Position numbers and translations under genes: made by a program
Notes under the pieces: model-generated
The model's input: the letters and a program-made list of their open reading frames with translations, nothing else
Told to the model about the DNA's origin: nothing
Databases searched by the model: none
Shown here: in pieces, positions 8,948 to 37,423 of the stretch
How positions within the stretch are numbered: position 1 is the first letter of the stretch
Layout of the letters: each line of letters starts with the position of its first letter
NCBI GenBank assembly: GCA_002753495.1
Contig: PEAJ01000003.1
Coordinates: forward strand, 1 to 40,624
From: Magnetococcales bacterium HA3dbin3
GTDB taxonomy: Bacteria > Pseudomonadota > Magnetococcia > Magnetococcales > DC0425bin3
Length of the DNA: 40,624 bases
Direction of reading: 5' to 3'

Positions 8948-11303
8948 TCACACCTTGGCCCTCCCACGCGTCCGTGCCTGGAGCTGGCTTCTGACTTGTG
9001 TATAAAGCCGGGCCTCCCCGTTTTCCCGGTCACGCAGGCAGACCACCAGGGCATAGTCCTCTTCGGTGGCACATAGCGGTTCACCCCACGGAAGATCGTT
9101 GCGGGTAACAACAACGAACAGCCGGTTGTTGCGCAGGAGGGATCTGCGATCAAACTGCCTGAATTGCCAGAAGTCGGCCTGCACCGTGCCCTTGCTGCGG
9201 GCCCGCTGGCCAACGGTAGCGGTTTTCAACTCGGAGATGCTCTCGTAATCGTCCTTCTCGGTGGCCTTGTTGAACATGGTGGTGACATGTTCCAGATCCG
9301 GTGCCGTCACCAGGCGAAAGTCGATGCGGGTGGCACGGTACTTGATTCGGGTTGAACGGACGATGGGCGCATAGGCCAGCCCCACGGCAATTTCCCGCGA
9401 TCGACGACGGCCACCGCTGGTAAACTCCTCTGGAATGGGAATCTCATAGAAGTGGTGACGCTTGTTCTCAATGGAGCTATCGGCGATAAGGGTCACCGCA
9501 TTTTCGAGGGAGCGGTACAGAGCCGATTCATCCACCCGGCCATAGCCGCAGACCTTTCTGAACGCCTCATCGCGGTCTATCAGGGCCTGGCTTTCCTTTG
9601 GCATGATGGCATGGGCGCAGAGCAGTGCCCGCAATAGTCTGGCGCTGGCGTCAGGATGTTCCCGCAGGATGGACGCCGCCAGGTGGGCCACCTGGGGCGC
9701 GGCCATGCTGGTTCCCGAATCGACGGCAAAAGGATGGCCCATGGCAAATTGATGATGGGTCGAGACGACTCCCAGACCCACAGCCCGATCCAACAATGCG
9801 TTGCCAACCCGCCGAGTATTGAACGCCCAGTTGCCGCCATGCGCCATCAATTCTGGCTTGATCGCCCCATCCACGGAGGGCCCGCTGCGGGTGAAAGGGG
9901 ATGGCTGATCCGGCTGGGCAATCGGGATCTCTGACGGGTCCAGCGGGTAGTGCTGGCTGTTGTAGGTTTGGTTGTGTCGAGCCAGGCTGCCTACGGTGAG
10001 GACGTTCAACGCCGGGGCCGGCTCGATCATCCGCCACGCCTTGTCCAGCAGGTAGTGCGGGTAGTTGTCCCGCCAGGCAAGTCCGTCAGGGGAATCCTCG
10101 CCGACCCTGTGGTTGCCCGCCGACACCACGAACAGCACCCCCAATTCTCTGGAAAGGGCATCCAGAGTCAAGGAAAGTCCTTTCAAATGGCCGCCCAGGT
10201 AGGGTTTGTTGGCGTCACCGAAAGAGAGATTGAAGACCCGGCAGTTGTACTCCTTCACGAAATACCGCACGGCCTTTTCGATATGTTTCTCGACAAAGCC
10301 TGTGGTGTTCTCGTTATTCTTGTCGAGAATCCTGCCACTGAACAGGCGCAGTGTGGGCACGAATAAACGGGAGCGCAGGCTGCTCTCGAAATCCCCGTAC
10401 AGGGCCAACCCGGCCACATGGGTGCCATGCCCGCTCTCATCGGCGGCAGACTCTCCAGGCAGAAAACTTTGAGCGTCCCCCACCGCCGCCCCCAACAAGG
10501 GGTGTCCCGTGGCCAGGCCGCTATCCAGGACCACGACACCGGGAGCTTGCTCGCCCGGGGCATTGACGATAGGGAACTTCTGGATATCCTGAAAGACGAC
10601 GGAGCGTTCCAAACCGAAGCTGGGTGGCAGGTCTACTGACCGCACATCCCGGTGTCTGAGAAGCTGATGAGCCTGGACAGCGTTGCACTGCACTCGGTAA
10701 AGAGTCAGGCCGGACTGTTTGGCCTGATCTTTCTTATCAATGCCTTCACGAGTCAACCACGTTTCAAACGCCTCCCATTCTTGGCCTCGTTCCCGATGAT
10801 TATCTTCCAGGGGCCACAGCTCCACATCCAACAGGAAGGAGTCCGATTCTGGAAGGCCCTGTTTTTTTCAGCGCCCACCCTTTGCGATCCTCGGGACGCC
10901 AGTTGTCTATGCTTTGCAGGGCATAAATGACCTGCTTGTTGGTGACGTCACCCCCGCTGGCCATGGTGGCCAGTCGGGCTTCGAACTGGGCAAGGGCTGC
11001 GTCACTGGCGAAGACGACAACAACCGTCTCGTCCTCCTGGCTGACGAACTCGATTCCCGAGGAAATCTTGCGCAGGTCGTCGGGGTTGAATCCCTTCTGC
11101 ACGGAAAAGCGGAACAAGCGGCGCTCGTCAAACCCACCTACATCCCCCGCGGTTTGCTCCCTGGCCTGGGCGAGTTTTTGCTGCAATCCTCGTCCATGGC
11201 CACGAATATCTTGCGGAACAGAAAACCTTGGCGGCTGGCCCGGTCGTTTCTCATTGACCAGTGCCTCCCGTTGCAGTGGCAGATGAGGATAGGACTCAGC
11301 CAT
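8948..11303 (-). pseudogene. Subtilisin-like S8 serine protease (IetS-like), split by a one-base frameshift
   Basis: Catalytic triad motifs VVVLDSG, GHGTHVAG and SGTSMAAP in 8948-10831; N-terminal part in 10800-11303. Removing one base from the T7 run at 10862-10868 joins them (..WALKK-QGLPESDSFLLDVELWP..) into about 784 aa. It may instead be an intact gene with a sequencing error. Confidence 0.85.
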
Positions 11304-11309
11304 GGGTCA

Positions 11310-12305
11310 TCAACCTCGCTTCATCCGGGCACGCCGGGCATCCTCCCGGTGGATGGCGGACTGGATGTGCCGTTCGCTCAGGAACTCCTTGCCGGCTAGA
11401 ATCATTTCTTTAGCGGCCCGGCGCAATACCCGCTCCACATCGGCTTGACTCATCCCCTTGAAGAGGGTGGCGATCTCGTTGCTCTCCACCTCGAAATTTC
11501 GTCGCAGACCGCGCAGTTTGCAGGCCAGCAGCTTCCGCAATTGCTCCAGATTGGGCGGTTCGAAAACCAGAACCTCGTCGAACCTGCGCCAAACGGCGGC
11601 ATCCAAAATGCCCTCGTGATTGGTGGCGGCGATGAGCAGGCTCCTGCCATTGTAGGTATCGAGAAGCTGTAAAAAGGCATTGACTACTCTTTTCAGCTCG
11701 CCATGATCCGCCGCATCGGCGCGTTCCTTGGCCAGGGCGTCGAACTCGTCGAACAGCGCCACCATGGGCACGGAGGCTACGAAATCCAAAACCTGACGCA
11801 AATTGGCGGCTGTCTCTCCCAGATAGGAGGAGACCACACTGTCGATACGCACGATGGCCAATGGTAGACCGAGTTCCGAGGCCAGGACTTCCGCCGTCAG
11901 GGTCTTGCCGCAGCCAGGAGGGCCGCAGAACAGGAGTCGATCCGCTGGCGCGAGACCATGACTCTTTAATACCTCTTGTCGATGGTACTCCTGGAGAACC
12001 TCGTCGATCAGGGAGCGGTTGTCATCGGAAAGAATGACATCCTCCAACCGCCGAAGGGGTTCCCTGATATACAGGAGTGGAAGGCCACGCTCTTTGTCGC
12101 TTGGAACTTGCTTGGTCAAGGAGACGAATGGTTGACTGGTAACACTTGACCGGCCGTAAAGGATTTTTTCCAGGTCGCTGGCAAGTAGGTGGTGGTGTCT
12201 CTCCCGCTCCTCTCGGATGACATCCTCGGAAGCCTTTTTGAAAGCCTCCAGGTCTCCTTCCGCGCCTGACCGAATGAGCTGTCTTAGCAAGCTGCCCGAT
12301 GCCAT
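11310..12305 (-). CDS. AAA+ ATPase (IetA-like)
   Basis: Walker A GPPGCGKT, Walker B ALFDEFD, sensor-1 AATN and arginine finger RRFD; ends 6 nt upstream of the S8 protease start. Confidence 0.92.
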   Translation of the reverse strand: MASGSLLRQLIRSGAEGDLEAFKKASEDVIREERERHHHLLASDLEKILYGRSSVTSQPFVSLTKQVPSDKERGLPLLYIREPLRRLEDVILSDDNRSLIDEVLQEYHRQEVLKSHGLAPADRLLFCGPPGCGKTLTAEVLASELGLPLAIVRIDSVVSSYLGETAANLRQVLDFVASVPMVALFDEFDALAKERADAADHGELKRVVNAFLQLLDTYNGRSLLIAATNHEGILDAAVWRRFDEVLVFEPPNLEQLRKLLACKLRGLRRNFEVESNEIATLFKGMSQADVERVLRRAAKEMILAGKEFLSERHIQSAIHREDARRARMKRG

Positions 12306-18652: not shown

Positions 18653-20329
18653 ATGGAGAACAAAAGGAAAAAGGGTCTTGACATCACGTTGCGCTGGGGG
18701 CTGGGGAGCGCCTTTGTTGGTCTGTCCCTGCTGACTCTGTTTCTCTTCGGGTTGGTCACCCACCTCATGGTTCATACCTCGGCCAAGGAGGAGTTTCGGA
18801 ATTGTCTTTTTGAGGCAACCGGCATTGCCGCTCTGGTGGTTGATGCTCGTCTGCATAGCTCCATTCACGGTCCCACCGACGAATCCAGCGAGGCCTATCT
18901 GGCCATTCAGCGTCAATTGCGGCGCGTGCGCAACGTTTCCGGTGAAATCCAGTCCATTCATACCCTACGCAAGGAGCCGAGTGGTCGGATCATCTTTGCT
19001 GTCGATGCAACGCAGGGTGCTGATCGCACCAACCATGTCGGTCATCCGCGTGAGAAGGTCACGCCGGCGATGCTTGCGGCGTTCGAGAAACCCTATCGTG
19101 TTACAGTCGAGCAGGAGTTTCACACCGACAAGGCGGGGACGACCCTCTCCAGCTACGCCCCGATCTTCAATACCGATGGCTCCCTGGAGGCGGTCCTCGC
19201 CATTGTCATCAACGCCCAAAAAATCGCTGGTTACGAGAGCGACTACATCTACACCCTTTGCACGATCATCTTCGTTTCGACCCTCGTCGCGATGGTTCTG
19301 GGATTTCTCTTCTCGCGCCGTATCAGCAAACCTTTGCTGGCCCTGGAGCAGGACATGGCGCGGATCCAGCGGTTTGATCTCGATCACAAACCCGAGGTTG
19401 ACTCCCGTGTGCGCGAGATTGTCATGATGAAGTCGACGGTCGACAACATGAAGAACAGTCTGCGCTCCTTCAAGAAATATGTTCCCGCTGATTTGGTGGC
19501 GGAGTTGATTCTGTTGCGCAAGGAGGCGGTTCTGGGGGCGGAAAAGCGGGAGATGACCATCTTTTTTTCCGATATTGCCGGCTTCACTACGATATCCGAG
19601 CAGGTCTCTCCGGAGGTGTTGTCCGAGCGTCTGGGGGTCTATTTCGAGGGGATGACCAGCACCATCTTGCGGCAGCGTGGGACAGTGGATAAGTTCATTG
19701 GCGATGCGATCATGGCCTTCTGGGGGGCGCCGGGATTGCTCGCGACCCATGCCGAAGCGGGGTGTCGCGCGGCCCTGGCCTGTCAGCGTCTGCTTGCCGA
19801 ACAGGCGCCGGCATGGAGCCAGGCTGGATTTCCCGCGTTTCCCACGCGCATGGGACTGTGCAGTGGCGAGGTCATTGTTGGCAACATGGGATACAAGGAT
19901 CGTCTGAGTTACACGGTCATCGGCGATACCGTCAACCTCGCCAGCAGGCTGGAGAGTTTGAATAAATATTACGGTACGCGCATCGTGATTGGTGAAAGCA
20001 CGCAGGCACAGGTGGATGCCAGCATGGTGACCCGGTTTCTGGATGTGGTGGCCGTCAAGGGCAAGAGCCAGGGCGTACGTATCTACGAACTGGTGGAGGA
20101 GCGGGACCGAGTGACGCCCGAGGAGTTGCAATTTGTCAATCGCTACAATGACGGTATGCGTCTTTATCTCGATCGTCAGTGGCAACAGGCGGCGGAGCTC
20201 TTTTCGGCTTGTCTTGGGGAGCGGCCTCAGGACCAGCCTGCGGGCATGTTGCTCACGCGCTGTCGAGAGCACGCCATTCAATCGCCCCCCGCTGACTGGT
20301 GTGGCGTGACAATCATGAAGGAGAAGTGA
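18653..20329 (+). CDS. Membrane-anchored class III adenylate/guanylate cyclase (sensor domain, HAMP, cyclase, helical tail)
   Basis: Two TM segments, HAMP-like ISKPLLAL, FSDIAGFT, DKFIGDAIMA and YTVIGDTVNLASRLE. The Lys/Thr specificity pair points to a class IIIb adenylate cyclase. Confidence 0.92.
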   Translation: MENKRKKGLDITLRWGLGSAFVGLSLLTLFLFGLVTHLMVHTSAKEEFRNCLFEATGIAALVVDARLHSSIHGPTDESSEAYLAIQRQLRRVRNVSGEIQSIHTLRKEPSGRIIFAVDATQGADRTNHVGHPREKVTPAMLAAFEKPYRVTVEQEFHTDKAGTTLSSYAPIFNTDGSLEAVLAIVINAQKIAGYESDYIYTLCTIIFVSTLVAMVLGFLFSRRISKPLLALEQDMARIQRFDLDHKPEVDSRVREIVMMKSTVDNMKNSLRSFKKYVPADLVAELILLRKEAVLGAEKREMTIFFSDIAGFTTISEQVSPEVLSERLGVYFEGMTSTILRQRGTVDKFIGDAIMAFWGAPGLLATHAEAGCRAALACQRLLAEQAPAWSQAGFPAFPTRMGLCSGEVIVGNMGYKDRLSYTVIGDTVNLASRLESLNKYYGTRIVIGESTQAQVDASMVTRFLDVVAVKGKSQGVRIYELVEERDRVTPEELQFVNRYNDGMRLYLDRQWQQAAELFSACLGERPQDQPAGMLLTRCREHAIQSPPADWCGVTIMKEK

Positions 20330-20331
20330 CC

Positions 20332-22380
20332 GTGGTGGCACGATACCTGTCGGCGATTCTCGTTCTTGGCACGTTGTTTGTCGGTGGCTGTCTGGTCAGT
20401 TGGAGAAAGTGGGCGGACATTACGGTCGACTATGGCCGCAGTCTGTACATTCCCTGGCGCATGAACGAAGGGGAGGTGCTCTATCGTGACCTCGATGCCA
20501 TCTTTGGTCCCCTCTCCCACGCCTTTCATGCCTGGCTGTTTCGGATCTTTGAAACCTCGTTCATGACCCTTGTCGTGCCGAATTTGATAGGGATTATTCT
20601 CCTTGCCGCCTGCATTTTCCATTTTTTCCGACGCCATACACTACCCATTTCCGACCAGTCCACGGGATTGTTTGTGGGTACCCTGGTTTCCTCCGTGTTT
20701 TTGGCGGTGTTTGCTTTTGGCCACTACGCCTGGATGGGCAACTTCAACTACGTTACGCCCTACAGTCCGGAGGCGGTTCATGGAACAATTCTGCTCACCT
20801 TTATGGTCACCCTTGGTGCGTCGACGCTGGGGAATCCGGGGCGAATCCGGCTTCTGGTTTGGCTGATGGGGGGGGTGTGTGGTCTGATTTTCATGACCCG
20901 CGTGGATATGACCCTGGCGGCGTTGATGATTGTGGCGGTCTACATGCTGCTTGCCTGGCGTGCCCCGGCGCATCGGGTACTTGGGCTTTCCCCGCGCGTT
21001 GCCCTGTTCGCGGGCGGTGTGGTCACGGCGATACTGGTTGTTTACGTGATGATTGGCCAGTTTCCGTTGGCCTATATCTGGCATGACATCAACGTATTGC
21101 TCGTGCGGGGTCGCATCGACAAAAACCCCTTCTACGCCACGGTGATGGGAACCGATAATTGGCAGGGTAATCTCTGGGTGATGACGAAAAACATGTTTGT
21201 CTACCTGGCCCTGATTGTTGGCACGGCCATGGTCTACCGTGCCCCGCCGGCGGCCATGGGCGTGGGGGGGAAATTGGTGTATGTGGTGGCGGGGCTCTTT
21301 CCCATGCTTATGGTAACGCTGTGGATCTGGGAGATGTTTCCCATCTCCGGGCTTGCATTAATCTGCCTGTTGCCGATCGTTGGTCTGGTCTGGTCGACTT
21401 ATCGCTCCCCGCCTGTGGTGGGAAGGGTCGAGGGATGGCTGCGCAAGGCGGCAAGTCTGGTTCCCATGCTTGTGGCGGCGCTGTGGATCCTGCTGACTCC
21501 CCCTACGCCATTCCTTAAGTTATTGTTGCTTTCCATCCCGCTCCTGGTCCTGATGATGGCCGGGATGTTCCTGGTTGCCCTCTTGCGCCCGCGAGAGAAA
21601 CAGGGGTTTGACGGGGAAGGGGCCGTCCCCTGGTTGCTTTGGGCAACCTTCTCCTTTGCCCTGTTGCTGAAGGTGCCTTTTAATGCCCGTATTTTTCATT
21701 ACGGCTTTATCCATGTCATGCCCGCAACCCTTCTGCTGGTCGCATTTCTGGTCGGCCACCTGCCAGCGTGGCTGCGAGCGCTTGGATTGAACGATCGACA
21801 TTTTCGTTTGGTCATGACCGTGCTGATTGTCTTGACATCGGCGCGCCTTGTGAGTTTGGGTTACAGCCTTTATGCGAAAAAAGACTTTCCGGTTGGAGAG
21901 GGGCAAGATCAGATGTTTGTTTATTCGCCGAAGAACGATGCACGCGGCGAGGTGATCGGCAACTTTCTTGCCTGGATGAAAGAACGCGCAGCACCGAATG
22001 CCACGTTTGTCGTGGTCCCTGAAGGGGTGATGTTGAATTACCTTGCCCGGCGCAAGACTGTAACCCCGTCCATGTCATTTCTCCCTCTCGAGTTGCTGCG
22101 CATTCCTGAGGAACAGCAAATTGCTTATTTTGAGCAACGTCCGCCGGATTATTTTGTCGTGATCAAGCGAACACTCAAGGAGTATAGCCTGCCAGGTTTT
22201 GGCGAAAGTCCGAAGCTTGGGCAAAAAATGATGAGCTGGATTCACGGTCATTACAGCCAGCTGGCGTTTCTGGAACCGAAAAATGAGGATCCCGGCAAGT
22301 TTTGGATCCGGATTCTTGGCAGAAAGGAATCCCCTTATAACACGAAGCAAGGTGAAACCGGCATTCGCGGAACACAGTGA
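20332..22380 (+). CDS. Polytopic membrane protein, probable GT-C (ArnT/PMT-like) glycosyltransferase, copy 1
   Basis: First TM followed by loop DYGRSLY..GEVLYRD..FGPL, many TM helices and a soluble C-terminal domain. The GTG start (20326 or 20332) abuts the cyclase stop. Confidence 0.65.
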   Translation: MVARYLSAILVLGTLFVGGCLVSWRKWADITVDYGRSLYIPWRMNEGEVLYRDLDAIFGPLSHAFHAWLFRIFETSFMTLVVPNLIGIILLAACIFHFFRRHTLPISDQSTGLFVGTLVSSVFLAVFAFGHYAWMGNFNYVTPYSPEAVHGTILLTFMVTLGASTLGNPGRIRLLVWLMGGVCGLIFMTRVDMTLAALMIVAVYMLLAWRAPAHRVLGLSPRVALFAGGVVTAILVVYVMIGQFPLAYIWHDINVLLVRGRIDKNPFYATVMGTDNWQGNLWVMTKNMFVYLALIVGTAMVYRAPPAAMGVGGKLVYVVAGLFPMLMVTLWIWEMFPISGLALICLLPIVGLVWSTYRSPPVVGRVEGWLRKAASLVPMLVAALWILLTPPTPFLKLLLLSIPLLVLMMAGMFLVALLRPREKQGFDGEGAVPWLLWATFSFALLLKVPFNARIFHYGFIHVMPATLLLVAFLVGHLPAWLRALGLNDRHFRLVMTVLIVLTSARLVSLGYSLYAKKDFPVGEGQDQMFVYSPKNDARGEVIGNFLAWMKERAAPNATFVVVPEGVMLNYLARRKTVTPSMSFLPLELLRIPEEQQIAYFEQRPPDYFVVIKRTLKEYSLPGFGESPKLGQKMMSWIHGHYSQLAFLEPKNEDPGKFWIRILGRKESPYNTKQGETGIRGTQ

Positions 22381-22383
22381 CGA

Positions 22384-22977
22384 ATGGGCGTGTGGTGTGG
22401 TGGTACGAGGTGTTATGCCGCCCTGGCCTGTCAGCGTCTGCTTGCCGAACAGGCACCGGCGTGGAGCCAAGCTAGATTTCCCGCGTTTCCCACACACATG
22501 GGGCTGTGCAGTGGCGAGGTCATTGTTGGCAACATGGGGTACAAGGATTGCCTGAGTTACACGGTCATCGGCGATACCGTCAACCTTGCCAGCAGGTTGG
22601 AAAGTTTGAACAAGTACTATGGTACGCGCATCGTGATTGGTGAAAGCACGCAGGCACAGGTGGATGCCAGCATGGTGACCCGGTTTCTGGATGTGGTGGC
22701 CGTCAAGGGGAAGAGTCAGGGCGTGCGTATCTACGAGCTGGTGGAGGAACGGGGTCGGGTGACAGCCGAGGCGTTGCAATTTGTCGAGCGCTACAATGAC
22801 GGTATGCGTTTTTATCTTGACCGTCAGTGGCAGCGGGCGGCAGGGCTTTTTTCGGCCTGTCTTGAGGAGCGGCCCCAGGATCGGCCTGCGGACATGTTGC
22901 TTGTCCGTTGTCGGGAGTACGAAGTTCAATCGCCTCCCACGGACTGGCGTGGTGTGACGATCATGAAGGAGAAGTGA
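22384..22977 (+). pseudogene. 5'-truncated copy of the cyclase (C-terminal ~185 aa), frame intact
   Basis: Matches 19772-20329; lacks the FSDIAGF and KFIGDA motifs but keeps GDTVNLASRLE. Confidence 0.85.
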
Positions 22978-22979
22978 CC

Positions 22980-25028
22980 GTGGTGGCACGATACCTGTCG
23001 GCGATTCTCGTTCTTGGCACGTTGTTTGTCGGTGGCTGTCTGGTCAGTTGGAGAAAGTGGGCGGACATTACGGTTGACTATGGCCGCAGTCTGTACATTC
23101 CCTGGCGCATGAACGAAGGGGATGTGCTTTATCGCGATCTTGACGCCATCTTTGGTCCCCTTTCCCATGCTTTTCATACCTGGCTGTTTCGGGTTTTTGA
23201 AACCTCGTTCATGACCCTTGTCGTGACGAATTTGATAGGGATTATTCTCCTTGCCGCCTGTATTTTCCATTTTTTCCGACGCCATATACTACCCTTTTCC
23301 GATCATGCCACGGGATTGTTCGTGGGCACCCTGGTTGCCTCTGTATTTTTGGCGGTGTTTGCTTTTGGTCAATATATCTGGGCGGGTAACTACAACTACG
23401 TTGTGTCTTACAGCCCGGAGGCGGTCCACGGGACAATTCTGCTTGCTTTCATGGTTACCCTTGCTGCGTCGACGCTGGGGAACCCGGGGCGAATCCGGTT
23501 TCTGGTTTGGCTGATGGGGGTTGTGTGTGGTCTGATTTTCATGACCCGCGTGGATATGACTCTGGCGGCGTTGATGATTGTGGCGGTCTACATGCTGCTT
23601 GCCTGGCGTGCCCCGGCGCGCCGGGTACTTGGGCTTTCCGCGCGCGTTGCCCTGTTTGCGGGCGGCCTGGTCACGGCGATACTGGTTGTTCACGTGATGA
23701 TTGGCCAGTTTCCGTTGGCCTACATCTGGCGTGACATCAACGTGTTGTTCGTACAGGGTCGCATCGACAAAAATCCCTTCTATGCCATGGTGATGGGAAC
23801 CGACGATTGGCAAGGTAATCTTTGGATAATGACGAAAAACATGTTCGTCTACCTGGCCCTGATCGTTGGCACGGTCATGGTCCATCGCCCTCCGCTGGTA
23901 ACCATGGGCGCGGGTGGGAAATTGGCGTATGTAGCGGCGGGGCTCTTTCCTATGCTTATGGTGACGCTGTGGATCTGGGAGATGTTTCCCAGCCCCGGGC
24001 TCGCATTAATTTGCCTGTTGCCGATCGTTGGCCTGGTCTGGTCGACCTGTCGCCCTCCGCTTGCGCTGGGAAGGGTCGAGGGATGGCTGCGCAAGGCGGT
24101 GAGTCTGATTCCTATGTTCCTGGCGACACTGTGGATTATGCTGACTCCTCCCCTTCCTTTTCTGGGGCTGTTGCTGTTCTCCATTCCAATCTTGGTCCTG
24201 ATGATGGCTGGGGCATTTCTGGTTGTCCTCTATCGGCCATGGATGGAACGGGGGCTTGCTGGAGAAGATGTCGTGCCTTGGCTGCTCTGGGCAACCTTCT
24301 CTTTTGCCCTGTTGCTGAAGATGCCTTTTAATGCCCACATTCCCCATTATGGTTTCATCCATGTCATGCCTGCGACCCTCCTGTTGGTTGCATTCCTGAC
24401 TGGCCACCTGCCAGCGTGGCTACGGGCATTTGGATTGAACGATCGACATTTTCGTTTGGTCATGACCGTGCTGATCGTCTTGGCATCGGCGCGCCTTGTG
24501 AGTTTGGGTTACGGCCTTTATGCGAAAAAGGACTTTCCGGTTGGAGAGGGCAACGATCAGATGTTTGCCCTTTCGCCGGAGAGCGACGCGCATGGCGAGG
24601 TGATCGGCAACTTTCTTGTCTGGATGAAAGAACACGCAGCTCCGAACGCCACGTTTGTCGTGGTTCCCGAAGGGGTGATGTTGAATTACCTCGCCCGGCG
24701 TAAGACTGTAACCCCGTCCATGTCGTTCCTTCCCCTGGAGCTGCTGCGCATTCCTGAGGAACAGCAAATTGCCTATTTTGAGCAACGTCCGCCGGATTAT
24801 TTTGTCGTGATCAAGCGGACTTTCAAGGAGTACGGCCTGCCAGGTTTTGGTGAAAGCCCGGAATTTGGACAAAGGATGATGAGCTGGATTCACGGTCATT
24901 ACAGCCAGCTGGCGTTTCTGGAACCGAAAAATGAGGATCCTGGCAAGTTTTGGATCCGGATTCTTGGCAGAAAGGAATCCCCTTATAACACGAAGCAAGG
25001 TGAAACCGGCATTCGTGGAACACAGTGA
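22980..25028 (+). CDS. Probable GT-C membrane glycosyltransferase, copy 2
   Basis: Same length as copy 1 and colinear with it, with substitutions concentrated in the middle. Confidence 0.65.
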   Translation: MVARYLSAILVLGTLFVGGCLVSWRKWADITVDYGRSLYIPWRMNEGDVLYRDLDAIFGPLSHAFHTWLFRVFETSFMTLVVTNLIGIILLAACIFHFFRRHILPFSDHATGLFVGTLVASVFLAVFAFGQYIWAGNYNYVVSYSPEAVHGTILLAFMVTLAASTLGNPGRIRFLVWLMGVVCGLIFMTRVDMTLAALMIVAVYMLLAWRAPARRVLGLSARVALFAGGLVTAILVVHVMIGQFPLAYIWRDINVLFVQGRIDKNPFYAMVMGTDDWQGNLWIMTKNMFVYLALIVGTVMVHRPPLVTMGAGGKLAYVAAGLFPMLMVTLWIWEMFPSPGLALICLLPIVGLVWSTCRPPLALGRVEGWLRKAVSLIPMFLATLWIMLTPPLPFLGLLLFSIPILVLMMAGAFLVVLYRPWMERGLAGEDVVPWLLWATFSFALLLKMPFNAHIPHYGFIHVMPATLLLVAFLTGHLPAWLRAFGLNDRHFRLVMTVLIVLASARLVSLGYGLYAKKDFPVGEGNDQMFALSPESDAHGEVIGNFLVWMKEHAAPNATFVVVPEGVMLNYLARRKTVTPSMSFLPLELLRIPEEQQIAYFEQRPPDYFVVIKRTFKEYGLPGFGESPEFGQRMMSWIHGHYSQLAFLEPKNEDPGKFWIRILGRKESPYNTKQGETGIRGTQ

Positions 25029-27869: not shown

Positions 27870-28900
27870 CCGCGATCGAAACACCGTCAGCGCTAACATC
27901 CTCGGGGTTGCGGGATCGCTTTGGGCGGGTGATTCGCTATTTGCGTTTATCGGTGACCGAAAAGTGCAATTTTCGTTGTCATTATTGCCGGTTGGCAGCC
28001 GGTGAGGGCGGGGAGCCACGGCACGATCCCCTCACGACCGCCGAGCTCGTGCGCTTGGTGCGACTGTTTGCCCGGTTGGGAGTGGGGCGGTTTCGTCTGA
28101 CCGGCGGCGAACCGTTGCTGCGTCGTGACATCACCACCTTGTTGGCGGCGATGCTTGCACTGCCCGGCGTGGAGGAGGTCTCCCTTTCGACCAATGCCTA
28201 TCTGCTCGCCGGCATGGCCCAGGAGTTGAGGAACCTTGGCTTGCGTCGCGTCAACATCTCCCTGGACTCGCTTAAACCGGAGATGTTTGCCCGCATCACG
28301 CGCGGCGGGGATCTGGCGCGGGTGCTTTCAGGCATCGATGCCGCTGTGGCGGCGGGATTGGCGCCGGTGAAGATCAACACGGTGGTCATGGGTGGAATCA
28401 ACGAACAGGAGATTCCTGACCTGATCAACTACGCGCGTGGCCGGGGCGTTTTGTTGCGTTTTATCGAGACCATGCCGATCGGCGACGCCGGGGCGGCGGT
28501 GATGGGGCGCCACGTCCCGGCCGCGGAGATTCGGGCGCGCATCCTGGCCACTTGTGGCGGGGAGCTGTTGCCGGTATCCCAGCCCGTTGGCAATGGTCCC
28601 GCGAGTTATTTTCGCATTGCCGGACTTGGGGTTGATGTGGGCATCATCTCCGCTTTGTCGCAGCATTTTTGCGACACCTGCAATCGGGTACGTCTTACGT
28701 CGTGGGGAGATCTTGTTCTTTGTCTGGGTCGGGAGGATCGGGTTGACTTGCGGGAGGTGCTCCGGTCACATGCCGACGATGCAACCCTTTGTGACATGAT
28801 TGCCCAGGCCATCCTCCGCAAACCTCGCGGGCACGAGTTTGCCGCGTCATCCGTTAGTGATAACATCTCCCCCCACCCTATGGCCAGCCTTGGAGGATGA
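27866..28900 (+). CDS. moaA: GTP 3',8-cyclase
   Basis: [33 protein letters not shown] and C-terminal GG; GTGA overlap with moaC. Confidence 0.97.
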
Positions 28901-29207: not shown

Positions 29208-29370
29208 TGTAGGGCGCCGTTTGATTTGGCACCGATCGTCGCTTAGGTTGGCACCGATTTAGGGTTGTAAAAAAGTCATCGGCACGCATCTTGCTTTTAC
29301 CAACCGGACACCTGCTGTACCGCGCCGCCTTCGTTGGCATAAATTTTTGCGCTCGTTGGCACTGATTTAG
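29208..29370. repeat. Two blocks of TGTA-N3 plus two tandem 22-bp repeats (putative transposase-binding end)
   Basis: Repeats at 29215-29236, 29237-29258, 29323-29344 and 29345-29366, all carrying TTGGCA and ending in AT. The two blocks are 108 bp apart and both end in TTAG. Confidence 0.8.
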
Positions 29371-29432
29371 AGCCTACCTTCCCCGCTCTCGCCACCTCCT
29401 CCTAAGAAAATGCATTGTTCTGTTTTTTTCTG

Positions 29433-29526
29433 TTGCATAGCCTACGCAGTATGCTATGATGGATTCATCGATCGGGGCAGACGGCCCCACCCGCTCCTCG
29501 GGGATATCAGGGGATGGAGATGGAAG
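29433..29526 (+). promoter_or_regulatory. Sigma70-type promoter plus structured leader, copy 1
   Basis: TTGCAT-16nt-TATGAT with extended -10 TG, upstream T tract, GGGGC-loop-GCCCC hairpin and GGAG RBS. Confidence 0.8.
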
Positions 29527-29919
29527 ATGCAAGAAAAAACACATCATTTCGTTCAGCTCGCCATTGATCGCGCAGCCCGCCTTTTAGAGGAAAGGCTTGT
29601 GCAGCTAAGGGCGGTTAAGGGCCCCGGCTGCCCCTTCCCCCAATTCGATCCACGCGTGGTTGAATGGCACCGGGAAATCAAAAAGAAGTGCTGTGCGGAG
29701 TCTGAGAGGCATGTACCTGCCATAACAGCAGCCGCTTTTGCCGCTGCCGGCGCTATGGCAGTGGCAGAAACTGATGCCGCAATAGTGACTGTGGCGGAAA
29801 AAGCCGCCCAGTCTGTTGTCCATAAGATATGCCCGTTCCCGACTGCGTTGGAGCTATCAGATGCATACGTAGGGCTCTCACCCCTCTATCCTCCCGAGGA
29901 AAACGACTGCGCAGGGTGA
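29527..29919 (+). CDS. Hypothetical protein (130 aa)
   Basis: ATG lies at the same position after the leader and RBS as in copy 2; no recognisable family. Confidence 0.7.
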   Translation: MQEKTHHFVQLAIDRAARLLEERLVQLRAVKGPGCPFPQFDPRVVEWHREIKKKCCAESERHVPAITAAAFAAAGAMAVAETDAAIVTVAEKAAQSVVHKICPFPTALELSDAYVGLSPLYPPEENDCAG

Positions 29920-29999
29920 CTAAGACGGCAAGCCGGTGGTGGGAGATAGCCCTCCCCCACCACCATCCTTCATATCCTCCAAAAAATGAGGTTGAGAAA

Positions 30000-30551
30000 A
30001 TGTTGAAATCTTTCGATAAATTTTCACAGGATTCCATTCTACTGGTCTCGGCGGAGGCTCGTGCCGTTCTCTCCGACGCGGCCCGGGAGGGACGGACGGC
30101 TGCGGTGATAGAGGATGTCCGTGATGCCTATGACATACTCCGTCCCCTCGCTGTTGTCTCCGCCGCACGCCTCCTGATCGGGGCGCGCGGGCGGATCGAC
30201 GAGGGGGAGCTCCGCCGACTCCTCGGCGCCCCCGGGACAGTCGTTGATCACCTATCCGTCGTAGAAATTTATGGGTCAACCCCTTATGATAATATTTTCT
30301 TATCTGACTTCTTCGACGCGACGACCCTCGATAACACCGTGAGACATGCCCTCACGGTGTCAATTTTTTGCGATCTCCGTGCGTGCCCTGTTTGCGTTGG
30401 GGGGGGCTGCCCCTCATGTGCGCAGATCGGGGACAGCATCGTCCAGGTGCGCCCTGGACGGCCATCGTGCTTTGGCAAGAGCCCCCAAGAGCGGTTTGAG
30501 GAGGAGATCAGGGAGTGGCTGTCCCTGCCTCCGTCAGAGACGAGGATCTGA
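30000..30551 (+). CDS. Hypothetical protein with a CxxCxGxG-CxxC zinc-finger-like motif (183 aa)
   Basis: GAGG upstream of ATG 30000; CPVCVGGGCPSC near the C-terminus. Confidence 0.7.
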   Translation: MLKSFDKFSQDSILLVSAEARAVLSDAAREGRTAAVIEDVRDAYDILRPLAVVSAARLLIGARGRIDEGELRRLLGAPGTVVDHLSVVEIYGSTPYDNIFLSDFFDATTLDNTVRHALTVSIFCDLRACPVCVGGGCPSCAQIGDSIVQVRPGRPSCFGKSPQERFEEEIREWLSLPPSETRI

Positions 30552-30563
30552 GAGATAAACACA

Positions 30564-30599
30564 CCCTGGCGGGCCATCCTCTGCCAGGGCATCTTTTTT
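30564..30599 (+). terminator. Terminator-like hairpin before the HTH gene
   Basis: Stem CCCTGGCGG / CTGCCAGGG followed by CATCTTTTTT; the U tract is offset from the stem by 4 nt. Confidence 0.5.
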
Positions 30600-30606
30600 G
30601 GAGTAT

Positions 30607-31098
30607 ATGCAAGGGCGTAACTATATGATAAAGCTGGTCTATCCCGACTCAGAGCACGCACTTAGGTTTGATCCCGTGCGGATCGCTGTCCGCTGGCCGC
30701 ACGGGAAAGTTATTGACGGGGAAGAGTTTTCGTCTATCGCCGCGGCTGGGGGCGTCATAAAGACCGACCAGAGAATCGGAGTTCTACGCGCGTTCCAGGT
30801 CGAGGACGGCAGCCTTTTGGCAGATTCCATTGTTTCTGTTGAGGATGTTCGTGGAAAGCGCTTGCGCGATCTGCTGTCGCTCATGTCTCTCACACGCGAC
30901 CAGGCGGCGGCGCTGGTGATGGTCTCGCCATCGACGCTGGATGCGTGGATCTCACAGACTGGGGGGGCGGCCAAAAGGTCTGCCCCCGCGTGGGCCCTGC
31001 TGCTCCTCTCTCTCCTCTACGAGGCACGCGCCGCCGGAGAGGTAGGAGAGGCGATCGAGCGTAGAGCGCGCGCACGGGTGGAGTCCAAAAAAATTTAG
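30607..31098 (+). CDS. Protein with C-terminal XRE-type HTH resembling anti-CRISPR-associated (Aca) repressors
   Basis: LRDLLSLMSLTRDQAAALVMVSPSTLDAWIS...RSAPAWALLLLSLL. The start is 30607 or 30625. Confidence 0.7.
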   Translation: MQGRNYMIKLVYPDSEHALRFDPVRIAVRWPHGKVIDGEEFSSIAAAGGVIKTDQRIGVLRAFQVEDGSLLADSIVSVEDVRGKRLRDLLSLMSLTRDQAAALVMVSPSTLDAWISQTGGAAKRSAPAWALLLLSLLYEARAAGEVGEAIERRARARVESKKI

Positions 31099-31130
31099 GA
31101 TGGATCGCTCCTTGCCGTGCCGTTTTTTCC

Positions 31131-31226
31131 TTGTATAGACCACCACGCGTGCTATAATGAAATCATCGATCGGGGCACATCGCCCCGCCCGCTCCTCGGG
31201 GGGAAATCAGGGGATGGAGATGAAAA
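31131..31226 (+). promoter_or_regulatory. Sigma70-type promoter plus structured leader, copy 2
   Basis: TTGTAT-16nt-TATAAT with extended -10 TG; leader nearly identical to copy 1. Confidence 0.85.
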
Positions 31227-31967
31227 ATGAATAAAACCAATTTTTTGGTCCCGCTGCCATCCCTCACAGGCCTTGAAGCGGCTGAGGCTGAGCCTGTCCG
31301 CGACCGTCAGCTTGGCATAGCCCGCAGGATCGGCGAGGCGTTCGCTTTATCCGAGGACGGCGCCAGCCGTGAGGAGATCAGCTCGGGACTAGAAGGCCAG
31401 GAGCCAGTTTTTTTCGGTCTCGTGCTCGGATACGCTTCCCTGTCAGAGTACGACAGGGTGGTAGCTCATCTCGCCGGCATCACGTCGGCGCGCTGGTGGG
31501 TGACGACGGGGGCGAAGATTTTTCCGGAGCTGATCTCCAGCGCTATCAGACACATCCGTCTCGGTGAGCTGCCGGAGCTGGAAGGGACTGAAAAGCAAGC
31601 GGTCTGGGCGGGGGAGATCCGCGCCCAGCATCTCGATCGCGCAGAGCGTATGCTGCGCATCGCGCGTATCGTACAAAGTGAGACGATCTTCCTCAGTATG
31701 TCCGAACAGGCACAGGCGGAGGCATATACTGAGATCAAAAAAATTGCGGCGGGGACTTCTCTCCTGGACCAGGGCGCCCATGGAGGGGATTTTGTCACCC
31801 TCATGCGTCTCGCGGGCGACTCTGGTCGCTACGAGGCGTTTTACACCTGGCTGCGCGGCCGGACTGCATCTGGATGGTGGCTGGAGCGCAAGGTGGCGGG
31901 AATGGATTTGATTATGAAAGATTTTTTACGGGTGAGTTCAGCTGCTCAGAGCAGCTTCCGCTCCTAG
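31227..31967 (+). CDS. Hypothetical protein with an internally duplicated domain (246 aa)
   Basis: LPSLTG...TSARWWV and LPELEGTEKQAVWAGEIR...TASGWWL; GGAG RBS. Confidence 0.8.
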   Translation: MNKTNFLVPLPSLTGLEAAEAEPVRDRQLGIARRIGEAFALSEDGASREEISSGLEGQEPVFFGLVLGYASLSEYDRVVAHLAGITSARWWVTTGAKIFPELISSAIRHIRLGELPELEGTEKQAVWAGEIRAQHLDRAERMLRIARIVQSETIFLSMSEQAQAEAYTEIKKIAAGTSLLDQGAHGGDFVTLMRLAGDSGRYEAFYTWLRGRTASGWWLERKVAGMDLIMKDFLRVSSAAQSSFRS

Positions 31968-36860: not shown

Positions 36861-37423
36861 GCCAGGTCTCCGTACGCGCCCCAGGTGTTGGGGGTCCCAG
36901 CGACCAGCTTGATGATGGTGACCGGGGAGTGCTGGCCGGCCAAGGATGTTCTTCCCTGCTTGCTTTCGATTACGTCCGCCCCTTGAGCGACCATCGTCAC
37001 CGTGCCGACGCCTCGCTGGATCACGGCACACTGCCACCCGGCCGGGATGGCCTCGGTGGAGGTCTGCGGCAGCGTCAGGGTGATGGGGCTCGCGTTGCTC
37101 AGAGTGATGATCTTCCCGCGATCCGCCCCGGTGGCTGTGTAGCTGGTACCGGTCTGCGCGCTGATCTGCGCACCGTGGCCAGACATGCTGTTGTTGGCAT
37201 CGACGGCGATGCCGGAGGCGTGCGCCGCGCCGTTGCCGTCGGTGACCGGGAGATACCCAGCACTTCCGGACGGGCCCATCGCCTGTCGCAGGTTTGCTCC
37301 GGTGATTTTCCGCGTGCTCCCGGCGGAAGAGTCGGTCGTGTCGGACACATCGACTGTCACGAAGTAGTCGCTTGGGTCTGGGGTCGTCAGAGCCGGCAGG
37401 TCGGTGATTTTACGGTCGGCCAT
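36857..37423 (-). CDS. Phage fibre/decoration protein
   Basis: MADRKITDLPALT N-terminus and a QTGTSYT..AD.GKII.LSNASPITLTLP domain. Confidence 0.7.
   Translation of the reverse strand: MADRKITDLPALTTPDPSDYFVTVDVSDTTDSSAGSTRKITGANLRQAMGPSGSAGYLPVTDGNGAAHASGIAVDANNSMSGHGAQISAQTGTSYTATGADRGKIITLSNASPITLTLPQTSTEAIPAGWQCAVIQRGVGTVTMVAQGADVIESKQGRTSLAGQHSPVTIIKLVAGTPNTWGAYGDLA

Follow-up and report, generated by a model that had tools for sequence, protein, structure and literature searches.

A conserved leader motif of Aca-type phage and plasmid operons and its coupling to an N-terminal M-x-NHPNR tag

In the genome of Magnetococcales bacterium HA3dbin3, a repeated leader stands in front of two unrelated genes, and the locus raises the question of what such a leader does and which molecule reads it. 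The whole contig (PEAJ01000003.1 of assembly GCA_002753495.1; 40,624 nucleotides, nt) was analyzed and is called the window here; positions refer to its forward strand. An earlier note, made from the sequence alone, had described two structured leaders and had suggested a cis-regulatory RNA motif in an Aca-type setting, a recombination module, or both. We found that the core of the leader goes together with an N-terminal tag, M-x-NHPNR, which is carried by Aca10-like repressors and by about 30 unrelated domains. By sequence comparison, the motif is identified as a widespread conserved structured leader of Aca-type phage and plasmid accessory operons. The link between tag and motif is apparently unreported in print: searches with the tag string NHPNR and with the core strings gave nothing relevant in the literature searched, which mostly excluded subscription journals.

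The repeated cassette in the window

Both leaders are present as they had been described, and the two copies align with 79.3% identity over 116 columns (BLAST, E 9e-20). The repeat is about 105 nt long, however, and not about 60 nt as first thought. Its 5' boundary lies about 40 nt further upstream, at a T-tract followed by TTG(C/T)ATAG (29433 and 31131) and, after a gap of 11 nt in both copies, TGCTAT(G/A)AT (29452 and 31150). Because the repeat begins at this T-tract and the -35 and -10 elements, it includes the promoter, and each copy is read as a sigma-70 promoter with an extended -10, a 5' leader and a Shine-Dalgarno sequence (SD). No third copy was found in the 2.9-Mb assembly, where the next best hits had E 0.044 with nhmmer and E 0.014 with a covariance model. 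A simple consensus promoter scanner reported neither promoter, probably because the -35 agrees with the consensus at just three of six bases. The features of the two copies are as follows.

29423..29460, plus strand: promoter of copy 1, read from the sequence; T-tract, -35 TTGCAT (29433-29438) and extended -10 TG-C-TATGAT (29452-29460)
29436-29458, plus strand: candidate operator of copy 1, CATAG-N13-CTATG, overlapping the promoter
29474..29488, plus strand: hairpin P0 of copy 1, GGGGC-AGACG-GCCCC, just after the predicted +1
29490..29513, plus strand: core motif of copy 1; P1a CCC, loop GCTCCTCG (29493-29500), P1b GGG, linker ATAT and CAGGGG (29508-29513)
29516..29529, plus strand: SD GGAG (29516-29519) and start ATG (29527) of copy 1, read from the sequence
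31122..31158, plus strand: promoter of copy 2; T-tract, -35 TTGTAT (31131-31136) and extended -10 TG-C-TATAAT (31150-31158)
31134-31156, plus strand: candidate operator of copy 2, TATAG-N13-CTATA
31172..31186, plus strand: hairpin P0 of copy 2, GGGGC-ACATC-GCCCC, just after the predicted +1
31188..31213, plus strand: core motif of copy 2; CCC, loop GCTCCTCG (31191-31198), GGG, GGAAAT and CAGGGG (31208-31213)
31216..31229, plus strand: SD GGAG and start ATG (31227) of copy 2, read from the sequence

From the usual spacing between a sigma-70 -10 element and +1, transcription would start near A29467 in copy 1 and near A31165 in copy 2. In 76 of 141 homologs, a promoter is placed in the same way with respect to the motif. 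The operator-like inverted repeat YATAG-N13-CTATR is found in both copies and carries a compensatory change (CATAG/CTATG versus TATAG/CTATA); its half-sites are just 5 bp long and overlap promoter consensus bases. The GGGGC/GCCCC stem of P0 is kept while its loop differs (AGACG versus ACATC), as had been noticed before. Two other readings in the earlier note did not hold. A pairing had been proposed for a 5' TCATC, whose TC precedes the predicted +1 and is probably not in the RNA, and homologs differ there. The ATG adjoining GGAG (29520 and 31220), taken as the start, is out of frame, with reading frames of just 15 and 4 codons; the second ATG (29527 and 31227), 7 nt 3' of GGAG, is where the genes start.

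Distribution of the leader motif

The motif set comprises at least 141 distinct motifs over all fetched loci, and the family layout is promoter, hairpin P0, P1a, a GC(G/U)CCUCG loop, P1b, a variable linker, CAG(U)GGG(C) and SD. The core is strand-specific and has a fixed location between the predicted +1 and the SD, which starts 1-2 nt after CAGGGG in 104 of 139 motifs when an SD within 28 nt is required. An unrelated lambdoid prophage (G004) has two copies with the core unchanged and the hairpin and operator different.

A search with just the core returned 3 stretches in the database IMG/VR as well as 34 metagenome stretches, 11 with leader architecture by eye. A downstream gene led to the commoner form of the motif, in which G replaces T at loop position 3, and the pattern of this form matched at least 123 IMG/VR stretches. 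Among the 124 distinct IMG/VR matches listed, 105 have an SD and a start codon directly behind the motif, and 69 have the promoter pattern in front. The covariance model found clear copies in G004, G010, G017, G038, G049 and G051 among 56 genomes of the order; a 151-genome sample of the phylum gave four matches outside the order, one with leader architecture. The covariance-model search and covariation test, both proposed in the earlier note, thus yielded homologs and a covarying stem P1 (see below). Together with the Aca10-like genes and the operator palindromes, they bear out its suggestion of a conserved cis-acting structured leader in an Aca-type setting.

Other searches gave no relatives. 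In Rfam 15, no family reached its gathering threshold on the window leaders, 20 homolog loci gave only a tRNA, and one canonical copy stayed without a match at E<=1. In IMG/VR, nothing matched exact patterns of the window type that were anchored on P0. Annotated phages and plasmids, searched with the leader by blastn, yielded chance matches or none, and a scan with two loop bases freed returned 37 stretches and no new family members. A pattern scan of genome contigs gave 102 stretches, which were used solely as a negative set because the best-scoring rows lack the promoter-plus-SD architecture (present in none of the 45 best-scoring except three viral rows).

The earlier note had also asked whether downstream genes vary between related prophages, and they do differ freely behind near-identical leaders. 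In a group of related phages (L123, L124, L129, L152, L157 and L159), HNH-type or GIY-YIG-looking nuclease genes swap behind such leaders; these loci lie between head genes and the terminase, ahead of a THQNR-tagged helix-turn-helix (HTH) protein. Two spacers of clustered regularly interspaced short palindromic repeats (CRISPR) in genomes of the order copy the leader motif, L476 (G024:C110:23351-23386) and L480 (G018:C158:3995-4031), each with a different compensated P1.

Coupling of the motif to an N-terminal tag

Genuine motif loci repeatedly encode proteins that start with M-x-NHPNR, and no such tag is encoded in 102 chance-match loci. Starting from the motif, 61 of the IMG/VR loci listed reach at least 1.5 kb downstream, and a tagged open reading frame (ORF) is encoded in 38 of them. 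With a looser tag pattern the figure is 44 of 61 (opposite strand: 14), and variants are visible by eye in 5 of the remaining 17. When a tagged HTH was used as the query, the motif was found upstream in 15 of 17 loci (14 by pattern and 1 by eye); two pairs among these loci are duplicates, and the two misses had only 831 and 350 nt upstream. Starting from tag-coding DNA, we obtained at least 121 stretches, 116 of them distinct, and kept the 59 listed whose upstream DNA spans at least 1 kb and whose ORF has 40 amino acids (aa) or more. The motif lies upstream in 25 of the 59 by the strict pattern and in 42 by a generalised one, with none on the opposite strand and one downstream; among the 17 misses, several seem to be internal methionines, and near-matches are seen in 4.

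The HTH domain without its tag was also used as a starting point. From this query we took 9 of the 40 plasmid rows listed (108 records) for taxonomic spread, and added 2 of 5 phage rows, which came from the full-length query. The single tagged locus has the motif (E 3e-9), and the untagged Aca10-like loci have it in 0 of 10. Two class-wide searches for Aca10-like genes, over nearly the same 400 genomes, gave one locus, which lies in the genome at the centre of the searches and is not independent. In the untagged Aca10-like operon of phage Hyacinthe, the core is absent, and the promoter and hairpin P0 are kept.

In 91 of 102 ORFs, residue 3 is the first of the tag. All synonymous codons are used for it, which shows conservation at the peptide level. 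With the tag removed, the tagged ORFs form 34 sequence clusters, a count in which short proteins may be over-split; 49 of the 102 are Aca10-like HTHs, 12 belong to DUF6948, and many are singletons. About 30 non-HTH protein clusters carry the tag in the motif family. The tagged gene is the first behind the motif in 36 cases, and the tag is also found on a plasmid-borne repressor and up to 2 kb away from the motif.

Structure of the leader RNA

Hairpin P0 is free in sequence, yet among 71 homologous segments 62 have a better fold than 95 or more of their 100 mononucleotide shuffles. For stem P1, which would be stem 1 of an H-type pseudoknot, the test set consisted of 56 distinct motifs from loci chosen by peptide, with P1 not required, which avoids circularity. 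P1 covaries strongly. The two positions flanking the loop pair in 55 and 56 of the 56 motifs with four pair types, the third position pairs in 29 of 56, and 30 cells show a double change versus 5.8 in shuffles (0 of 500); slid registers perform worse. The stem is 2-4 bp long and free in sequence, with compensatory pairing that includes G-U. The second hairpin of the earlier note, CCCG-CTCCT-CGGG, is therefore supported as a hairpin by covariation, with a register that was off by one: the data favor CCC/GGG with the last loop G unpaired in P1.

The loop plausibly pairs with AGGGG(C) upstream of the SD as a pseudoknot, and the U-variant of the window offers five potential pairs, CUCCU/AGGGG. A different pairing, CTCC with GGAG as an anti-SD, had been put forward earlier. 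As a conserved mechanism it fails, since 127 of 141 motifs cannot form it; CTCC is a minority variant (14 of 141), and the majority have CGCC. The energies of the CUCC/GGAG and CUCCU/AGGGG helices are equal (-4.1 versus -3.9 kcal/mol), so anti-SD pairing may still occur in the two window copies. The correlation between P1 length and linker length (rho 0.51) is partly circular and was not used as evidence. An HDV-like ribozyme was considered for a similarity of the loop and dropped since the helix order does not fit.

Genes behind the window leaders and the tagless subtype

In the window, two orphan ORFs and a two-domain HTH gene follow copy 1, and a 246-aa ORF follows copy 2.

29527..29919, plus strand: cargo ORF1, 130 aa, of no family; no Pfam or PHROG match and no tblastn relative in the fetched loci
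30000..30551, plus strand: cargo ORF2, 183 aa, with no family or named homolog
30564-30599: terminator-like hairpin after cargo ORF2, inside the window operon
30625..31098, plus strand: two-domain regulator, 157 aa, with no NHPNR tag; N-terminal domain of no known family and XRE/Aca1-like HTH
31227..31967, plus strand: cargo ORF4, 246 aa, with a phrog_16123-type segment (PHROG E 5e-6)

The homolog searches for cargo and HTH were nearly empty: a word search gave no homolog of cargo ORF4, and the two-domain HTH has no relative in IMG/VR. Two relatives of the HTH come from Magnetococcales. The regulator matches phrog_2328 at E 0.004. Its predicted structure has a predicted local distance difference test score (pLDDT) of 82, and the C-terminal part overlays Aca1 with a root-mean-square deviation of 1.4 A, a similarity that is not significant in Foldseek (E 0.45). 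A basic residue and a His are conserved in the N-terminal domain.

Three genomes of the order, G010, G017 and G051, keep a perfect core without the tag, as do both window copies, and encode a two-domain HTH homologous to 30625-31098 (hhalign 92.9%, E 3.7e-7). In G010 and G051 the leader is also duplicated, and a phrog_16123-family protein is the first gene behind the motif, as with ORF 31227. Because regulator and layout match in these genomes, the window arrangement is a recurring tagless subtype. For the window copies, either the motif acts without the tag, or the N-terminal domain of the regulator replaces it, or the motif is orphaned, or it is read in trans. The tag may have given way to another small domain in Magnetococcales prophages of this kind.

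As a family, the two-domain regulators (a domain of about 70 aa plus an XRE-type HTH) are rare; they were seen in the window, L504, L506 and L507, each time in a tagless operon of the order that bears the motif, and nowhere else. By eye, four prophages of the order (L009, L504, L505 and L508) have a protein of about 320-350 aa behind the motif-bearing operon; in G004 it is phrog_6160.

Relation to known Aca operons

Feussner et al. 2026 (PMC13551039, Fig. S6A) predicted an RNA motif in 139 aca10 operons, saw no protein-RNA co-evolution and detected no RNA binding by purified Aca10. The main text of that paper does not specify the Aca10 variant used, contains neither 'pseudoknot' nor 'peptide', and treats the HTH as the binder. 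Judged from its legend and text, the published motif probably shares sequence with P0 and perhaps also with the core; the RNA may thus have been described before. It has the same operon class, the position directly after the transcription start site and the covarying hairpins in common with the leader described here; it differs, as far as legend and text go, in that the present family reaches about 30 non-HTH protein clusters and tagless Magnetococcales prophages. The aca10 untranslated region (UTR) probe of that paper lacks the core, and its Aca1 and Aca2 probes differ in sequence from the motif.

Two features of acr-aca operons are found in the window, a promoter-overlapping inverted repeat and an HTH gene within the operon. 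Like the Aca1 and Aca2 operons in the published descriptions (PMC13551039, PMC12658196), the cassettes have a strong promoter with an inverted-repeat operator, a structured leader beside the SD, small variable cargo, an HTH gene in the operon and neighbouring operons with repeated leaders; the RNA binder there is the HTH, whereas the putative binder here is a short N-terminal tag. Identity with the Aca2 RNA operator was rejected, as the window HTH ORF has no Aca2/YdiL (DUF1870) Pfam match and the published aca2 probe lacks the core.

The tagged HTHs are homologs of Aca10 (PMC9410881; PDB 7XI5; E 8.5e-14 for a tagged homolog) and have similar operators between -35 and -10. In contrast, the characterised Aca10 has no tag, and its UTR has no core. 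That the crystallised protein lacks the tag follows from the alignment, which begins only at its residue 4, opposite residue 16 of the tagged homolog. The window HTH gave no match to 7XI5 at E<=1 and was rejected as a member of the Aca10 family by sequence. In their accessible text, Lee et al. 2022 (PMC9410881; acrIC7-acrIC6-aca10) and Shehreen et al. 2022 (PMC9410906) treated DNA operators. The supplement of the latter holds the exact core string in 11 promoter rows and a tagged Aca10 in its protein list. A catalogue of viral structured RNAs (PMC10690425) gave no match in the part of the supplement searched, and the motif may be listed in the remaining supplement files.

A model for the leader and its alternatives

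The best model, to which we lean without great confidence, is that the tag binds the leader RNA and blocks translation, with a logic like that of Aca2. Each repeat would be an expression cassette for early accessory genes, probably with anti-defence functions. A strong sigma-70 promoter would carry an HTH operator between -35 and -10, hairpin P0 would probably shield the RNA 5' end, and P1 would present the GC(G/U)CCUCG loop, probably for pairing with AGGGG(C) just 5' of the SD. In the family at large, the core would be the most likely binding site of M-x-NHPNR on a protein of the same operon. As the tagged protein accumulates, it would stabilise the fold beside the SD, so that 30S loading is blocked. 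The result would be a second, RNA-level brake above DNA-level repression, exerted by a portable tag instead of the HTH. Phages need anti-defence genes in a burst and then turned down, and work on Aca2 reportedly showed that an RNA-level brake is required for this.

Other autogenous operators and peptide-RNA pairs are the pseudoknots of T4 gene 32 and rpsO/S15, and lambda N-boxB. As the model supposes here, a small RNA fold near the start is read in these by a product of the same unit, and in lambda N a short N-terminal basic peptide is the RNA-binding unit; the protein binders there are fixed, whereas the tag here occurs on many unrelated proteins, and a kinship in sequence is not expected. 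A further step, which we put forward tentatively and with less confidence than the binding model, is that the tag and a pseudoknot of about 25 nt form a minimal portable switch: mobile elements could graft the tag onto any protein, which would then sense its own abundance and stop its operon from being translated.

If the switch reading is true, the missing binder of the Aca10-associated RNA is named, and leader plus tag become a guilt-by-association marker for anti-defence genes for which an HTH is not needed. If the binding model is right, M-x-NHPNR would bind a defined RNA target with very few residues; such a peptide could serve as a tool, and also for finding accessory genes, of which hundreds are uncharacterised. 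Should the tag serve otherwise, the motif stays a widespread structured leader without an Rfam match.

Several observations weigh against the binding model. The coupling is one-sided, since about a fifth to a third of motif loci have no tag in the DNA read, and the counts overstate independence because the loci are related. The comparison that started from the HTH domain holds just one tagged locus. The genome of the window (77% complete, with the prophage cut at the contig end) has no N-terminal tag by strict or loose patterns; within the order, tags occur in G004, G038 and G049 and are absent from G010, G017 and G051. Five residues are few for a specific RNA-binding unit, and binding need not mean repression, because Aca1 binds its own RNA without silencing translation according to the published text (PMC13551039). 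Stem 2 of the pseudoknot has 83% of its cells paired and a double change in 0 of 7 pairs, and the majority form has a G.G mismatch within the helix; because the loop and AGGGG columns are nearly invariant, we infer this helix. Shuffled sequences fold as well as the window leaders do (z -0.29 to -1.03), and since thermodynamic folding is uninformative for them, the structural evidence is the covariation in homologs. Family and homolog scans, which included no Acr library, found no known acr or anti-defence gene among the three cargo ORFs.

The alternative that survives best is that the leader acts alone or with a host factor. It could stabilise the mRNA, tune or boost initiation, or act on RNA polymerase as HK022 put does, and the tag would be a separate signal shared by descent, either a degron or a capsid-targeting signal such as that of T4 internal proteins. 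We regard this as unlikely, if still a serious contender. It would fit the perfect core of the tagless loci in G010, G017, G051 and the window, the terminator-like hairpin within the window operon and the fixed N-terminal position of the tag, which suits a degron or targeting signal. A tagless leader at the right end of a prophage on contig C238 has the same stem and loop-pairing topology in unrelated sequence (19 of 1000 shuffles), and the published aca10 probe, also tagless, shows this topology by eye. However, the untagged Aca10-like operons are without the core in all ten cases, even in Hyacinthe with its promoter and P0, and the plasmid-borne tagged repressor and the tags up to 2 kb from the motif are poorly explained by descent alone or by virion packaging.

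It is improbable, in our judgement, that the HTH itself, whether Aca10-like or the two-domain regulator of the window, binds the leader RNA and that the tag is incidental. Aca1 and Aca2 do bind hairpins in 5'-UTRs (text of PMC13551039), nearly half of the tagged ORFs (49 of 102) are Aca10-like HTHs, and the tagless loci here encode an HTH. Against this stand the other half of the tagged ORFs, which have no Aca10-like HTH and of which many are first behind the motif, the untagged HTH operons without the core, and the published failure of purified Aca10 to bind the predicted motif and absence of protein-RNA co-evolution (PMC13551039, in the parts consulted). The comparative data make the N-terminal peptide, rather than the HTH, the likely RNA partner; the Aca-type setting suggested earlier stands.

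A DNA-level site for recombination or cassette exchange, or a recent promoter duplication without RNA function, appears very improbable. Duplication of the cassette is seen in the window, G004, G010 and G051, the two G004 copies also have their first 12 codons in common, and different genes follow near-identical leaders. However, the compensatory pairing with its G-U pairs, the strand specificity and the fixed position between +1 and SD are those of an RNA. Many loci are single-copy in the fetched DNA, no recombinase was found among the window ORFs scanned with Pfam and PHROG, and the longest exact run common to both copies is 17 nt. The dedicated recombination module of the earlier note is thus not upheld, and homologous exchange between copies is plausible as a by-product.

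Least probable of all, and in our view hardly credible, is that the core mimics a CRISPR repeat like the solitary repeat units of RNA anti-CRISPRs: the motif is located in Aca-type operons and the model weakly matches type I-E-like repeats of G002 (L479 and L497; 25-28 bits), a resemblance that we judged coincidental, but no Rfam CRISPR repeat family matches the leaders, P1 is unlike a long fixed repeat stem, and there is no spacer-like unit.

Prophage setting and other observations

The host genes of the window end with moaA at 28900, and phage tail genes lie on the minus strand from 31990 onward (Pfam and PHROG scans of the window ORFs). The end of the prophage was placed by a match to the prophage on contig C238.

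29316..29368, no strand assigned: right end of a transposable prophage of the Mu-like kind; TGT and then two TTGGCA repeats

The right end of the C238 prophage, which encodes a Mu-type transposase (phrog_310, E 7e-140), shares 92% identity with this segment over 53 nt. The cassettes therefore have the tail genes on one side and the right end of a Mu-like prophage on the other, and their transcription is directed inward. The right end of the sister prophage has its own promoter, hairpin and leader (G000:C238, about 37250-37330, minus strand, L018; GCC/GGC and CGGAC/GTCCG), and this leader and the aca10 probe may represent a broader class of early leaders with pseudoknots.

At 29208-29260, another sequence resembling a transposon end (TGT plus two TTGGCAC repeats) is located outside the prophage, 108 nt from its end at 29316. 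G001 and G038 contain similar DNA, and the sequence may belong to a further Mu-like element, as its nested or remnant end. A long hairpin, GC-rich and lacking a U-tract, lies at 29936-29965 between cargo ORF1 and ORF2. Three 84-nt tandem repeats in the last phage gene (40338-40599) stand at the contig end and are the likely reason for the assembly break there. Among the host genes, a 2648-nt tandem duplication without Pfam matches occupies 19758-25028 (about 93% identical in the first 300 nt). On the minus strand at 8948-12305, a pair of AAA ATPase and subtilase S8 genes with a small ORF between them is inserted after guaA and resembles an IetAS-type module.

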